Program-made: the position numbers and the translations under genes
Notes under the pieces: generated by a model
Told to the model about the DNA's origin: nothing
Database searches by the model: none
The model's input: only the letters and a program-made list of their open reading frames with translations
Shown here: positions 137-56,630 of the stretch, piece after piece
How positions within the stretch are numbered: position 1 is the first letter of the stretch
Layout of the letters: the number at the start of each line of letters is the position of its first letter
Assembly (NCBI GenBank): GCA_017436325.1
Contig: JAFSDI010000017.1
Span: forward strand, 1 to 56,630
Direction of reading: 5' to 3'
Length of the DNA stretch: 56,630 nucleotides
DNA from: Alphaproteobacteria bacterium
Lineage (GTDB): Bacteria > Pseudomonadota > Alphaproteobacteria > Rs-D84

Positions 137-167
137 TTGTGCCCTCCTGCTTGGTTGGTTGTTAATT

Positions 168-420
168 AAAAAACCACTGAAAGTCTTTCTTATTCAAGTG
201 GTCAGGAGGTTAACGACAATCTTTGGAATTGTGCTGCTTATTCAGTATATTCGCAAGCCCTCCTGACCCATATCGGTCAGGAGTTTGTTCATCGAATAAA
301 AAATAGCGCGAACCTGCGCCAATAAATTTTTATTCAGACGCCAAAGAGAGGTCGTTACACCCCAATACGATAGTTCAATCGTATCGAGTTTATTGTATAT
401 TTTTTTGTCTGATTGTGCAA
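168..420 (-). promoter_or_regulatory. structured leader RNA module, copy 4 of 4 (promoter + hairpins + long-range helix + terminator) upstream of the 1-136 gene
   Basis: The promoter is TTGCAC-N17-TACAAT (complement of 415-420 and 392-397). In the RNA sense, X is CUCCUGACC (276-284), Y is GGUCAGGAGGG (258-268), a UAUAC motif lies at about 245-250, Z is CCUCCUGACC (200-209), and the terminator is CCACUUGAA/UUUCAGUGG plus U6 (168-201). Z is also complementary to the SD at 142-150. The module is homologous in layout to 28952-29243 and 56244-56536. Confidence 0.6.
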
Positions 421-11484: not shown

Positions 11485-11569
<85 letters not shown>

Positions 11570-28951: not shown

Positions 28952-29243
28952 TTGATAAAGCACGTATTCTGTGATATAATTTATCGTGAAATCGCAGGGA
29001 TGCGCTTTCGGGGCCTTAGAAAAGCCTTTCAAGAATCCATATAAGCAAAACTTATATTGGAAATCCGCGCATAAATGGCGCGTTTTGCGCTTTTTTTTGT
29101 GCAATTTGCCCTGTGCAAAATATATTTTGTCGGGGTGCCGTCGGTTATACCACAGGGGCCCAGCGCCCCAAAGACCGATGGGATCGATATTCTTGACGAT
29201 TTTTCTAACACCCCGACCGCCTTGTATCCTGTGGCGGATTTTT
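28952..29243 (+). promoter_or_regulatory. structured leader RNA module, copy 1 of 4 (promoter + 5' hairpin domain + three-way-junction domain + terminator) upstream of the 29266-30597 operon
   Basis: The promoter is TTGATA (28952-57), a 17-nt spacer, then TATAAT (28975-80). The 5' domain has hairpins and ends in a GC hairpin plus T8 (29091-98). P1 pairs GUCGGGGUG (29129-37) with CACCCCGAC (29209-17). P2 pairs CCGUCGGU (29138-45) with ACCGAUGG (29174-81). The UAUACCACAG motif lies at 29146-55. The terminator is CCGCC-N11-GGCGG-AUUUUU (29217-43). Confidence 0.65.
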
Positions 29244-29265
29244 AATAAAAAAAAACAGGAATATT

Positions 29266-29556
29266 ATGAAATTTATTTTTTGTGGAATTTTATTGTTAAT
29301 ACCGCCGTTTACAGGTATGGCTGTCACACTTGCAGAAAAGCAGGCAATTGTTAATCAACTGAATCTGGAGATTCAGGAACTGGACAAACAACTGATAAAA
29401 TGCAAAAAAAATAAAACTGTTTGGCAGGCAACAACTGCCACCGGCAGCATCGGAAATATTCTGACAGGCATAGGTATCGTATCAAAAACAAAGCAATTAA
29501 AACAATTAAACGCAGATGCACAACAAAAAACAGAAGGTGAAGGCAATGAACAATAA
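29266..29556 (+). CDS. small exported coiled-coil protein, unknown family (paralogue of the next gene)
   Basis: An AGGA SD lies upstream. The signal peptide is MKFIFCGILLLIPPFTGMA. A coiled coil is followed by the Gly/Thr-rich hydrophobic segment TTATGSIGNILTGIGIV. Confidence 0.55.
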   Translation: MKFIFCGILLLIPPFTGMAVTLAEKQAIVNQLNLEIQELDKQLIKCKKNKTVWQATTATGSIGNILTGIGIVSKTKQLKQLNADAQQKTEGEGNEQ

Positions 29557-29947
29557 AAAATTTATGGCTATTCTTCTGTTACTTGTACCGACACCTACAA
29601 TCGCCACAGATATGGACGTGCAATATCAAATGCTGGATTTACAAATCGAAAAATTAACCGCAGAACGAAATTCAAAAAAGGAATTGTTACACGAATGCGA
29701 AAAGGCCACCAGAAAATTTAAAATCGCAGGCACAGCGACACTTACCGCAACCGGAATCGGCGCAATTGTAAACGATAATCTTAAGAAAAAAATCGAAAAT
29801 ATGAGTGCGAATAATTCTGGAAATCATAACAGTATCGCAAACCCAGCAAGTATGCCAAACGCAATCGAAACAAATTGCAAACAAGTATGCGATGGTGACC
29901 AATCTTGTATTAAAGAATGTATCGAATTCTATCAAAAAAACAACTAA
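29546..29947 (+). CDS. small exported coiled-coil protein, paralogue of 29266-29556
   Basis: The start was moved to the ATG at 29546, which has a GAAGGTGAAGG SD. The signal peptide is MNNKKFMAILLLLVPTPTIA. A coiled coil is followed by GTATLTATGIGAIVN (compare the upstream gene) and a Cys-containing tail (CKQVCDGDQSCIKEC). Confidence 0.55.
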   Translation: MNNKKFMAILLLLVPTPTIATDMDVQYQMLDLQIEKLTAERNSKKELLHECEKATRKFKIAGTATLTATGIGAIVNDNLKKKIENMSANNSGNHNSIANPASMPNAIETNCKQVCDGDQSCIKECIEFYQKNN

Positions 29948-29970
29948 AACAACAAAAAAAGGAGTAAAAT

Positions 29971-30597
29971 ATGAAAAAAACTTGTTTAATGACACTGACC
30001 GCAATAATCGGTCTGACACAAGCTGCCGATGCCGGATTTATTGCACAACAATGCCAAAAAAAGGTAGATGCAGGAACACACATTTTGCTGAATGCAAATA
30101 CAAATGACGAAAGATGTGTCCCTGTGAATGCATGTAATGATTTGGACTTCGCACCATATTACTGCAATCGCCTGTTCAAAAATATTCAGGTTTCTTCGGT
30201 GCGCGATGCAGAAGAATTGGTTAATATGTTTATAAAAAACAATATGAATATTTCCGAAGGATGTGCATTCAAAGAAACTAATGCGCGTGTTGTCGGTCAG
30301 GACTTTGTACGCTGTGTATTGCCAAATGATGGATATATCGAATTTGAATTCGATGATTTAAGTGAGAGCAATTCTGAAACATCAGAATATTCTTATTTGG
30401 TCGGACAATGCATCGCATATGGTGGCAATATTGACGAGAGAGCAACACAAGACAAACCACTTTTAGCACAGATACCTGTAAATAACGCAAGAAAAGTCCT
30501 TAGATGTCGCGATGTAACAAAAGCACAATGCGAAGAAATGTACAATGGATACGCGGGATATGTCGAAGCAGATAAAACCTGTGTTTATAATCGTTAA
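29971..30597 (+). CDS. exported Cys-containing protein, unknown family
   Basis: An AAAGGAG SD lies upstream. The signal peptide is MKKTCLMTLTAIIGLTQAADA. The mature protein has multiple Cys. It is the last gene of the operon, just before the terminator. Confidence 0.6.
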   Translation: MKKTCLMTLTAIIGLTQAADAGFIAQQCQKKVDAGTHILLNANTNDERCVPVNACNDLDFAPYYCNRLFKNIQVSSVRDAEELVNMFIKNNMNISEGCAFKETNARVVGQDFVRCVLPNDGYIEFEFDDLSESNSETSEYSYLVGQCIAYGGNIDERATQDKPLLAQIPVNNARKVLRCRDVTKAQCEEMYNGYAGYVEADKTCVYNR

Positions 30598-39706: not shown

Positions 39707-39778
39707 ATATAAAAATTCAAAAATCTGATATAGCCATAACAATATCATTTATATTGATTTTTTAATTCATAATTGTAG

Positions 39779-39974
39779 CCGAACTTGATAATAAAAAGTT
39801 CGGGGATTTCAAGTCCCATAAGCCGAGATATTTTAAACATCAGTTTATTTTGCCTGACCTAGGTTGGTTGGCTATCAGTAGTTATACAACAGTTTTTTCC
39901 AAAAGCTAAGAAGCCATTCGGCTTAACCCGACCATCATATCTTGAAAAAAACCGCGTGGGTGCGCGGTTTTTTT
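39779..39974 (+). ncRNA. structured leader RNA module, copy 3 of 4 (shorter and degenerate; no downstream ORF)
   Basis: Hairpin 1 pairs CCGAACUU with AAGUUCGG (39779-39803) and is followed by GGGG, as in the other copies. The UAUACAACAG motif lies at 39883-92. P1 pairs GGUUGG (39862-67) with CCGACC (39928-33). A P4-like hairpin AAGCC-AUUC-GGCUU is present. The terminator is ACCGCG-N6-CGCGGU plus U7 (39951-74). Confidence 0.45.
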
Positions 39975-40030
39975 CTTGCGGTATTCTCAATATAAACTGA
40001 GAAAAGGAGGAAACTTTAATCTTGTTGCCC

Positions 40031-55369: not shown

Positions 55370-55737
55370 TTTAAATGTGTATTCTGCCTGTCTGCATCAA
55401 TCGTTTTTTGTATCGCCATTTTTGTTTCTTGAAAAATAATACGTGCAGAACAAAGCTCAAACAAATTTTCAATACGTTTTTCATCCGCAGTCAAATGCTT
55501 TGCCTGACTGGAAATTACTGCTTCGGCGATTAAATCGTCATTTGCCATAATAATATAGTTATAATGAATAATATTATCTGGCTTACTGCGCGAAACAAGA
55601 AAACTGATACACATATCCTTGTCAACATCAATAGAATATTCTTTTATCGCACCATCAGCAATATACGCAACACCAATCGCAGATGTCTGGATTATTCTTT
55701 TTAGATAACTATAGATTCTATCAGATTCATCTGGCAT
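55366..55737 (-). CDS. hypothetical cytoplasmic protein (123 aa)
   Basis: The ATG at 55737 overlaps the 3' end of the upstream gene by 11 nt. No signal peptide, TM segment or known motif was found. Confidence 0.45.
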   Translation of the reverse strand: MPDESDRIYSYLKRIIQTSAIGVAYIADGAIKEYSIDVDKDMCISFLVSRSKPDNIIHYNYIIMANDDLIAEAVISSQAKHLTADEKRIENLFELCSARIIFQETKMAIQKTIDADRQNTHLN

Positions 55738-56185
55738 TTATATAACCCTTGCTTTGTTGCGCCAATACTTTTTTGAGTCTTTTTAACTCATTCAGGTGTG
55801 TCTTGGTTGATTTTTTTATACAAACATCTAAAATCTTGGTAAATACATCATCACTTGCATCTATATTTTTTGAATAACCAAGTAATTCGGTTTTATAAGC
55901 AAAATTTTCTTTATTATAAATACATTCACCATCAAAAAATATTCTAAGATTTTTTGTTCCTGAACAATATGCAATCTGTAAAATTGGATAAGCACCATAA
56001 GTTTCAGATGATTTTTCTAATTTTTCTTTTGCGCAATCAGACGTATCTTGCATTTCCATATCTAATAAAACCGTATAAATATCAAACATATCGAATTTGT
56101 TTTCGGCGGCAATTTCACGACTGACATGATGAAAGATTTCATTTTGATTTAATATGTTTAAAACTTCTTTGAAAACGCGTTGCAT
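55727..56185 (-). CDS. hypothetical cytoplasmic protein (152 aa)
   Basis: The start is the ATG at 56185. This is the first gene of a two-gene minus-strand unit that diverges from leader copy 2. No motif was recognised. Confidence 0.45.
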   Translation of the reverse strand: MQRVFKEVLNILNQNEIFHHVSREIAAENKFDMFDIYTVLLDMEMQDTSDCAKEKLEKSSETYGAYPILQIAYCSGTKNLRIFFDGECIYNKENFAYKTELLGYSKNIDASDDVFTKILDVCIKKSTKTHLNELKRLKKVLAQQSKGYINAR

Positions 56186-56243
56186 AATGATGCCTTTTTA
56201 GAAAATATAGCACGCAAACAACATTTGTCAATCGTTTTTGTAT

Positions 56244-56536
56244 TTGCAACAGGTTCGCTTTTTCGATATAATAAAAGTTGAACTGGATGGGAATCTGGTT
56301 CGGGGCTGTCACAAGCCTGACTAATCCGGTGCAAATATATGTGAACATATATTAAGTGTCGTTATTCCGACAAAGATATTTCCTGTATTTGCATCGCAAT
56401 CTTGATTATCCCTGACTTTTATGGTCGGGGGGCTGTCCGCTATACAACAGGTGTTTACACTAAAAGCGGGCAGAATCAGTGATTAGTTGATTTGTGAACT
56501 CCCCGACCGCATTGATTTTCATTGCGGTTTCTTTTT
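56244..56536 (+). promoter_or_regulatory. structured leader RNA module, copy 2 of 4, upstream of the 56564 gene
   Basis: The promoter is TTGCAA (56244-49), a 17-nt spacer, then TATAAT (56267-72). Hairpin 1 pairs UUGAAC with GUUCGG and is followed by GG. X is CCCUGAC (56411-17). P1 pairs GGUCGGGGGG (56423-32) with CUCCCCGACC (56499-508). P2 pairs CUGUCCGC (56433-40) with GCGGGCAG (56466-73). The UAUACAACAG motif lies at 56441-50. The terminator is CCGCAUUG-N5-CAUUGCGG-UUUCUUUUU (56507-36). Confidence 0.65.
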
Positions 56537-56563
56537 ACACAAACAATTAAAGCGGGGGACATT

Positions 56564-56630
56564 ATGAATAAAAAAATTCTTTTGGGCAGTATATTTACAA
56601 TTTCAATTATCGGTATGACGCATGCTGAAA
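56564..56630 (+). CDS. exported protein, N-terminal fragment (runs off the window end)
   Basis: The ATG at 56564 has a GGGGGA SD 5 nt upstream. The translation MNKKILLGSIFTISIIGMTHAE... looks like a signal peptide. Confidence 0.45.
   Translation, partial: MNKKILLGSIFTISIIGMTHAE

Follow-up and report, generated by a model that had tools for sequence, protein, structure and literature searches.

The small RNA (sRNA) sRNA-Xcc1 is an 88-nt product of a Xanthomonas campestris integron cassette, characterized by Northern blot and end mapping in Xcc 8004 only (PMC2996969), and published accounts treat it as trans-acting. In Xanthomonas it precedes symE in the most widespread integron cassette (bioRxiv 10.1101/2025.06.18.660453), in APSE phages it precedes an ORF6N protein gene (10.1101/2020.03.17.996009), and it forms tandem arrays in a Xylella island (PMC12189769). 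Members of the corresponding Rfam family, RF02221, are also found in Stx, Aaphi23 and APSE phages and in Xylella islands. Here we analyze a 56,630-nt stretch of DNA, hereafter the window, comprising positions 1 to 56,630 of contig JAFSDI010000017.1 (assembly GCA_017436325.1) from an alphaproteobacterium of order Rs-D84. The window contains three good copies and one degenerate copy of a structured leader RNA whose core is related to sRNA-Xcc1. Our subject is copy 2, at 56244-56536. The family to which it belongs is strongly supported as real: it conserves structure, offers an alternative helix between an upstream strand (X) and the closing helix (P1), and carries a terminator that starts inside P1. 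We consider it reasonably probable that copy 2 is a cis-acting transcription-attenuation leader, an ON/OFF switch that is riboswitch-like or responds to a factor, and for the family attenuator function is likely.

Sequence inspection and a promoter scan recovered, at the same positions, every element of copy 2 named in the original prediction, all on the forward strand. A sigma-70-type promoter (56244-56272; 10 of 12 matches) combines a -35 TTGCAA (56244-49) with a -10 TATAAT (56267-72) across a 17-nt spacer, and transcription would start near 56279-80, about 7 nt past TATAAT at the base of the first hairpin. This hairpin, H1 (56280-56301), pairs 9 bp under a GNRA-type loop (GAACUGGAU-GGGA-AUCUGGUUC) and is followed by H2 (56303-56318; GGGCU-GUCACA-AGCCU) and by H3 (56327-56371), in which CGGUGC...GUGUCG encloses an inner AUAUAUG/CAUAUAU hairpin and after which comes a conserved UAAUCCGA-type motif, here UUAUUCCGAC. 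The end of H1 and the start of H2 together form a UUCGGGG segment (56299-56305) that is near-invariant in the family and has the same sequence as the 5' strand of P1. X, the presumed decoy strand (56410-56416; CCCUGAC), pairs with GUCGGGG of that 5' strand, with one U-G pair, over a 7-nt loop. P1 itself consists of 10 bp, including one G-U, between its 5' strand P1a (56423-56432; GGUCGGGGGG) and its 3' strand P1b (56499-56508; CUCCCCGACC).

Two helices lie within P1. P2 (56433-56473) has an outer stem CUGUCCGCU/AGCGGGCAG, given originally as CUGUCCGC (56433-40) paired with GCGGGCAG (56466-73), an internal loop with AUACAACA on the 5' side and AAA on the 3' side, an inner stem GGUG/CACU and a UUUA loop. 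P3 (56474-56492; AAUCA-GUGAUUAGU-UGAUU) abuts P2, and J3/1 (56493-56498; UGUGAA) is the sole single-stranded junction segment; it retains the conserved AA end, and C56499 of the family AAC motif is the first base of P1b. An intrinsic-terminator-like hairpin (56507-56536) pairs CCGCAUUG (56507-14) with CAUUGCGG (56520-27) around a central U-U mismatch and runs into the U-tract UUUCUUUUU. As had been proposed, this hairpin begins within P1b: the first two C of its stem are the last two of P1b, and in the minimum free energy (MFE) fold four P1b bases (GACC) take part. A strict terminator scan gave no call for the copy 2 hairpin because of its internal U-U mismatch and loop length, and the terminator was therefore assessed by fold and covariation. 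The hairpin and U-tract end 27 nt before the start codon of the regulated gene (56554-56630), whose Shine-Dalgarno sequence (SD) is GGGGGA (56554-59), whose ATG is at 56564, and whose open reading frame (ORF) opens with MNKKILLGSIFTISIIGMTHAE, the first 22 codons being in the window. The 293-nt leader has an MFE of -99.7 kcal/mol (z = -6.2 against shuffles; z = -4.5 for copy 1).

Comparison with copy 1 (28952-29246, plus strand) bore out the claims that the promoter spacing is equal (TTGATA-N17-TATAAT in copy 1) and that structure is conserved between the two. Their common fold has 98.2% paired cells and six compensatory double changes, as against 39-52% paired cells with slid partners. Covariation of both P1 and P2 had been claimed. 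It holds for P2, with three outer and one inner double changes, but P1 is identical in eight of 10 pairs and covaries in only one; the terminator contributes one further compensatory double change.

Species-representative genomes were scanned with a family search pattern that fixed GTCGGGG, CCCCGACCGC and GCGGWTT. The pattern occurred at more than 111 places, about 105 of them real, nearly all in metagenome-assembled genomes of gut or rumen Alphaproteobacteria, many named Candidatus Enterousia; the leader-bearing hosts are Rs-D84 bacteria with genomes of 0.75-1.0 Mb. Applied to the window and 99 fetched loci (about 0.85 Mb), a covariance model built on the leader core, R1, recovered 116 members, among them second and third copies missed by the pattern. 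In the window, R1 scored copy 2 at 99.5 bits, copy 1 at 86.3 bits, copy 3 at 27.2 bits (E = 5.6e-5) and the degenerate copy at 15.5 bits (E = 0.054). With three to four copies in the 57-kb window, and extra copies at about one per 56 kb of flank beyond the anchor match elsewhere, we estimate on the order of tens of copies, or 15-60 genes, per ~0.9-Mb genome.

The alignment of the 116 members has 93.7% paired cells, as against 34-54% in slid controls, and shows covariation at 31 of 33 pairs; double-change cells number 447 versus 102 in shuffles. This alignment is model-fitted and the P1 core is fixed by the search pattern, so the information comes from the top two pairs of P1 and from P2, P3 and the terminator. 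Double changes occur in all nine outer and four inner pairs of P2, which in most members has an AUAnAAyA (5')/RAA (3') internal loop and in 30 of the 116 is capped by a GNRA tetraloop. The P3 helix is 97% paired, with double changes in six pairs and a conserved UCA/UGA core. The terminator helix also covaries, and the last 11 model positions average 7 U. P2 follows P1, and P3 follows P2, with no unpaired base intervening, and J3/1, about 7 nt long, ends in AAC. P1 (GUCGGGG/CCCCGAC) is conserved mainly in sequence.

The 5' domain of the family comprises, in order, H1 (GAAUCCAAU-GGGA-AUUGGGUUC), H2 (GGGGCU...AGCCC), H3 (CGGUGC-loop-GCAUCG, the loop often being GAAA), the UAAUCCGA motif, one or two more hairpins and X. 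Among 92 leaders, all nine H1 pairs show double changes with 90% of cells paired, and the loop is GGGA in 64. H2 has double changes in all five pairs and is 82% paired in a MAFFT alignment unfitted to structure. Taken together on plain MAFFT, H1 and H2 are 87% paired, with 141 double-change cells versus 56 shuffled and slid controls at 20-54%. H3 rests on the family consensus and on RNAalifold, which recovers H1 and H3, and was not separately counted for covariation. The leaders therefore possess the conserved, covariation-backed structure expected of the sensor domain of a terminating riboswitch or attenuator. They also have a conserved promoter of their own, about 145 nt upstream of P1. In 85 of 92 leaders (92%), versus 11% of random positions, a TANNNT -10 hexamer has its end 4-8 nt short of H1, and this hexamer is accompanied by a -35-like hexamer at 16-18 nt in 66 of 92, versus 1.75% at random. 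The fixed position of the -10 element 5' of H1 implies that the RNA starts at H1 and extends ~255 nt to the U-tract. At copy 2, the leader promoter stands back to back, 13 bp apart, with a near-consensus divergent promoter (56204-56231, minus strand; TTGACA-N16-TATATT, extended TG, 11 of 12 matches) that serves a 152-aa gene at 55727-56185.

The 7-bp X:P1a helix over a 7-nt loop, originally proposed for copy 2, proved general. Pairing of P1a with the preceding 30 nt reaches -8 kcal/mol or lower in 102 of 102 leaders; X is unconstrained by the search pattern, and the mean for X:P1a is -14.2 kcal/mol versus -7.8 when shuffled and -5.6 for another upstream window. When the two states are forced, the family means are -42.1 kcal/mol for closed P1 (GUCGGGG:CCCCGAC) and -44.1 kcal/mol for upstream pairing of P1a, a mean difference of 2.0 kcal/mol; closed P1 is favored in 21% of leaders, and the values for copy 2 are -46.6 and -48.6 kcal/mol. 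Mutually exclusive pairings of similar stability, as required of a riboswitch, are thus present. So is a predicted terminator next to or overlapping the closing helix and upstream of an ORF, since it shares 1-2 nt with P1b in most members (up to 4 in the MFE fold). Modeling suggests that closed P1 would cost the terminator stem its basal G-C pairs and leave the U-tract no longer flush with the stem. Alternate complementarity links UUCGGGG, X, P1a, P1b and the 3' strand of the terminator into a chain. Either G-segment, UUCGGGG or P1a, could be the pairing partner of X, and likewise of P1b, which would allow a signal to be relayed from the 5' domain to P1.

To read the whole copy 2 gene, the contig was extended via the neighboring 152-aa gene. 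The gene (extended contig L001:8744-9622, minus strand) encodes a 292-aa Cys-rich protein that matches no Pfam family and begins, as anticipated, with a signal peptide. Its homologues in other assemblies have differing genomic neighborhoods and the same leader. Start codons lie a median of 27 nt (interquartile range 24-31) after the GCGGWTT motif, a gap that leaves no room for a separate promoter; the downstream gene must therefore be transcribed through the leader. An SD-preceded co-directional ORF begins within 90 nt of 91 of 105 leaders, and 74 of these 91 ORFs (81%) have a signal-peptide-like N-terminus, versus 29% of 551 background ORFs (Fisher p = 2e-21), by a simple h-region test that replaced an earlier, over-strict signal-peptide heuristic. 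A single regulated gene family was ruled out: the 106 downstream proteins form 57 sequence clusters, none of the genes behind copies 1 and 3 resembles that of the 292-aa protein, and the copy 3 gene resembles a different family. Because these clusters are unrelated, the leader appears as a portable control module rather than the 5' untranslated region of one gene family. The original prediction would have fallen had the copy 2 gene been both unrelated to those of copies 1 and 3 and non-exported. Sequence relatedness is indeed lacking, yet the genes downstream of all three copies are exported, so that combination did not occur.

How closely the leader core follows sRNA-Xcc1 was assessed in both directions. 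RF02221 aligns at full length (positions 1-87 of 87) with copy 2 (33.9 bits, E = 3e-4) and copy 1 (30.9 bits), and among eight other loci five members scored 37-44.5 bits; copy 3 gave no match to this model. All Enterousia members, the best at 44.5 bits, fall below the RF02221 gathering score of 53 bits, and accepted RF02221 controls reach 86.1 bits in phage Aaphi23 and 79.6 bits in phage P13374. Reciprocally, R1 finds the Aaphi23 (39.8 bits, E = 3.4e-9) and P13374 (28.3 bits, E = 3.1e-6) RNAs at their RF02221 positions. Full-length alignments, helix covariation and loop consensus all place the RF02221 three-way junction in the Enterousia leaders. Both have a G/C-rich P1 of 9-10 bp (GGyCGGGG/CCCCGrCC) enclosing P2, P3 directly beside P2, an 8-nt AUACAAyA 5' loop and RAA 3' loop in P2, a J3/1 of 6-7 nt and a hairpin after P1. 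True Xcc1 members likewise precede, by 25-40 nt, a gene read in the same direction (ant, ORF26, symE or one for an ORF6N protein). Only the Enterousia leaders have the additional conserved ~145-nt 5' domain with its promoter and the X decoy. Behind P1 they have a full intrinsic terminator, U-tract included, whereas phage Xcc1 members have ACCCU..AGGGU without a U-tract; and they are chromosomal, in tens of copies per genome before exported-protein genes, whereas Xcc1 resides in integrons and phages. Because the helices, the AUACAAyA/RAA loop, J3/1 and the hairpin after P1 correspond, we regard the leader core, as judged from sequence, as a divergent branch of the Xcc1 architecture and not a member by the Rfam criterion. 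The overall design of the leader family and its regulon were previously undescribed in the literature searched.

Several features of the phage RNAs may be recorded here. The Aaphi23 Xcc1 (L121:1498-1582) lies 39 nt before ant, and that of Stx phage P13374 (L120:1486-1569) lies just before ORF26, annotated 'antitermination'; both are just 3' of a strong terminator-like hairpin. In P13374, isrK and C4 RNAs occur ~850 nt upstream of Xcc1 in the same orientation. A 48-aa 'antB2' coding sequence annotated over the Xcc1 RNA in four Stx-phage records, including P13374, is probably spurious.

The promoter, the helices, the alternative pairing with its near-equal energies, the terminator overlap and the gene association, all observed computationally, form the basis for the following model of copy 2, in which termination would be the regulated step, closed P1 the ON state, and an effector the input. 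Transcription would start ~7 nt after TATAAT, and the 5' domain (H1, H2, H3 and the following hairpins) would fold first. X (CCCUGAC) would then pair locally with newly made P1a (GUCGGGG), and P2 and P3 would fold next. The decision would fall as the 3' strand of P1 (CCCCGACC) emerges. In the ON state P1b would displace X and close the 10-bp P1 around the three-way junction, taking two C from the base of the terminator stem and setting a rigid structure against the terminator; with termination weakened, RNA polymerase would read into the gene 27 nt downstream. In the OFF state the X:P1a helix would leave P1b free, the full terminator would form and a leader RNA of ~255 nt would be released. 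The balance would be set by a hypothetical effector, a small molecule or a protein recognizing the junction, the AUAnAAyA/RAA loop or the 5' domain. As the same device precedes many genes, mostly encoding secreted, lipoprotein or surface products, it would co-ordinate an exported-protein regulon.

Several points weigh against this model. Termination and read-through rest on sequence and fold prediction, and the effector is hypothetical. Mutual exclusion is weaker than in classical riboswitches, because P1 and the terminator overlap by only 1-2 nt in most members. The apparent invariance of GTCGGGG, CCCCGACCGC and GCGGWTT is partly circular, as these bases were set by the search pattern, and some members (L008, L022, L055, L064 and L097) dispense with the distal part of P2. 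Sequence conservation of P1 and X exceeds the needs of pairing, which suggests a further constraint outside this model. The downstream genes are functionally heterogeneous and ~19% are non-exported; judging by N-terminal motifs, the exceptions include likely DNA methylase or restriction-modification proteins, GT2 glycosyltransferases, a helicase and small helix-turn-helix proteins. The signal-peptide test is a crude h-region heuristic, applied equally to leader and background ORFs. Finally, the founding Xcc1 member was reported as an 88-nt sRNA (PMC2996969).

This last point leads to an alternative in which the leader is a stand-alone gene for a trans-acting sRNA, as claimed for sRNA-Xcc1, and downstream expression is incidental read-through. 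The relation of the core to RF02221, the Northern blot detection of Xcc1 as an 88-nt RNA (PMC2996969), the leader's own promoter and terminator, and an orphan copy (39770-39976) with no gene downstream would all fit an sRNA gene. We nevertheless think it unlikely: leader and gene are strictly co-oriented and in most copies the start codon is ~27 nt downstream, the downstream genes would be left without a promoter, a conserved X decoy and two near-isoenergetic states have no role in a simple sRNA, and the leader RNA, in contrast to the 88-nt Xcc1, begins ~145 nt 5' of P1. The two readings are compatible, in that terminated leaders could also act in trans. The DNA-level explanation, a dispersed repeat of the MITE or Correia type or an invertible segment flanked by GGTCGGGG/CCCCGACC inverted repeats and having no RNA-level function, is hardly credible. 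The elements are multi-copy, dispersed and associated with accessory genes, and they do contain inverted repeats, but copies within one genome have diverged with compensatory changes and keep a fixed orientation and start-codon distance, on which grounds we ruled it out. Moreover, covariation in P2, P3, H1 and H2 is unexpected for a DNA repeat, the interior is never inverted in 105 hits of a pattern that would match an inverted interior, and no terminal repeats or target-site duplications were noticed, though no dedicated test was made.

Two further alternatives retain a regulatory leader and change the regulated step; each seems improbable. In translational control, CUCCCC of P1b, or X, would pair with the SD GGGGGA and block the ribosome until P1 closure frees it. 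The anti-SD complementarity originally noted is present in copy 2 as UCCCC:GGGGA, and P1b forms a stronger duplex with the ribosome-binding sites of leader genes (-8.75 kcal/mol) than with those of background ORFs (-6.72 kcal/mol; p = 1e-7), a modest difference against a background that holds spurious ORFs with weak SDs. A regulatory anti-SD role was not established by this match: the terminator hairpin and U-tract intervene between P1b and the SD, copy 1 matches weakly (SD CAGGAA), and G-rich SDs, to which any C-rich strand would be complementary, are common in Rs-D84 genomes. The near-invariance of P1b makes any covariation with the SD impossible to see. In processive antitermination or factor loading, the RNA, either alone like HK022 put or with a NusG-, Q- or N-like protein, would modify RNA polymerase for read-through of the leader and downstream terminators. 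True Xcc1 RNAs do occur in phage transcripts beside antiterminator (Q) and ant genes; the genes behind the leader are of accessory type (surface proteins, restriction-modification, glycosyltransferases); several hairpins have GNRA loops, a feature of tertiary-structured or protein-bound RNAs; and a recognition site is suggested by how strongly P1, X and UUCGGGG are conserved in sequence. Against these stand the put RNA itself, a V-shaped pair of stem-loops with no enclosing P1 (PMC9378689; compared by topology only), the lack of an identified candidate factor gene, and a two-state X/P1 design that would be superfluous for constitutive antitermination. We retain regulated attenuation as the preferred explanation of copy 2.

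The remaining copies in the window differ in context. Copy 1 had been taken to precede a single gene at 29266-30597, and one frameshifted ORF was considered there. We found instead three small ORFs (29266-29556, 29516-29947 and 29971-30597; 96, 143 and 208 aa) in different frames; all have a signal peptide of their own, none belongs to a Pfam family, and the region looks like a small operon of secreted proteins. Within the 5' domain of copy 1, a terminator-like hairpin with a U8 tract (29039-29110, plus strand; GCGCAUAAAUGGCGCG UUUUGCGCUUUUUUUU) gives a weak isrK-like Rfam match (19.1 bits, E = 0.07), and many family members have a comparable GC hairpin and U-rich run just 5' of X. Copy 3 (137-385, minus strand; core 165-269) lies upstream of a signal-peptide gene truncated at window position 1, and its P1 (GGGUCAGGAGG/CCUCCUGACC) and X (CUCCUGACC) have changed together. 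The degenerate fourth copy (39770-39976, plus strand) has H1-like and H2-like hairpins, X (GCCUGACC), P1 (GGUUGG/CCGACC), a UAUACAACAG loop and a strong terminator (CCGCGUGGGUGCGCGG followed by U7). It lies between convergent genes with no co-directional gene 3' of it, and could be an orphan or decaying copy or a stand-alone RNA. At gathering thresholds Rfam matched the whole window only at a tRNA gene with a long variable arm (11485-11566, plus strand; 82 nt, 58.3 bits), and for the copy 2 region a search at E up to 10 returned nothing beyond RF02221 and a noise-level U4 match.

Beyond the window, leaders neighbor chromosomal housekeeping genes such as rpoC, plsX, secB and argS. Residence in integron cassettes, phages, plasmids or islands was not borne out, only one IMG/VR contig having a copy: a full-scoring leader (92.8 bits; L122:13239-13347, minus strand) on predicted viral contig IMGVR_UViG_3300024272_005796, upstream of a 228-aa lipoprotein gene. 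Divergent pairs of leaders occur at L076 (1693-1810 minus, 2712-2828 plus) and L007. Two leader-bearing contigs recorded as Bacteroides fragilis and Muribaculaceae (L029 and L061) are probably mis-binned Rs-D84.

Rs-D84 bacteria, including Ca. Enterousia, have genomes of about 0.75-1.0 Mb with ~90% coding density and are probably partner-dependent in the gut (PMC12306168). That such reduced genomes retain tens of ~290-bp promoter-plus-leader modules before secreted, lipoprotein and accessory genes implies a single, strongly selected control point for the interface between the cell and its surroundings. With more than 100 sequences and clear covariation, the family is a well-defined candidate for a new riboswitch or attenuator class. 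More speculatively, and with less confidence than we place in attenuation at copy 2, the 5' domain and Xcc1-type junction may constitute an orphan class of RNA sensor, a riboswitch or protein-responsive antiterminator, that gates much of the Rs-D84 secretome (tens of genes, several per cent of all); by extension, integron and phage Xcc1 RNAs (before symE, ant and ORF6N) may be cis-acting leader switches and not trans-acting sRNAs. sRNA-Xcc1, for 15 years regarded as a trans-acting, virulence-linked sRNA, would then possibly be a cis-regulatory module common to phages, integrons and these symbionts. The leaders may also represent a natural mechanism in which a structure abuts a terminator, 'tug-of-war'-like, outside Gram-positive bacteria.

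Among described regulatory RNAs, the leaders resemble those of phages (P1 c4, isrK, HK022 put) in placing a structured RNA in the leader of tightly controlled genes. Copy 2 has no significant match to C4 or isrK, and no antisense target sites were identified for it; kinship of the 5' domain with isrK or C4 was dropped, there being the one weak match in copy 1 and none in eight other loci at E up to 0.01. A BoxB-like reading of H2 loops, some of which are UGAAAAA, was dropped because the loops are inconsistent across the family, and likeness to HK022 put was rejected because, compared by topology from the published description, the two differ.

In trp-type attenuators, segments pair as 1:2, 2:3 or 3:4, and 1:2 pairing permits the 3:4 terminator. 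The chain of X, P1a, P1b and terminator 3' strand follows this arrangement, with the differences that the Enterousia leaders have no conserved leader peptide ORF or SD and that their 2:3 pairing spans a 66-nt structured insert. A leader peptide was ruled out from the leader alignments, in which an AUG in the H1 loop and an AUG at P1a are unconserved and neither is preceded by an SD; short ORFs starting near P1a differ in each of copies 1, 2 and 3.

The pbuE adenine riboswitch exemplifies transcriptional ON riboswitches. As in ON and 'tug-of-war' riboswitches (bioRxiv 10.64898/2026.06.17.733018), P1 closes a junction that borders on an intrinsic terminator, lying just 5' of it or overlapping it slightly; a stable P1 would be expected to suppress termination; and mutually exclusive folds are of similar energy. 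Unlike riboswitches, the Enterousia leaders add an upstream X decoy and a large 5' domain, and they precede heterogeneous, mostly exported genes rather than those of a metabolic pathway. Their copy number per genome is, to our knowledge, far above that of any known riboswitch class.

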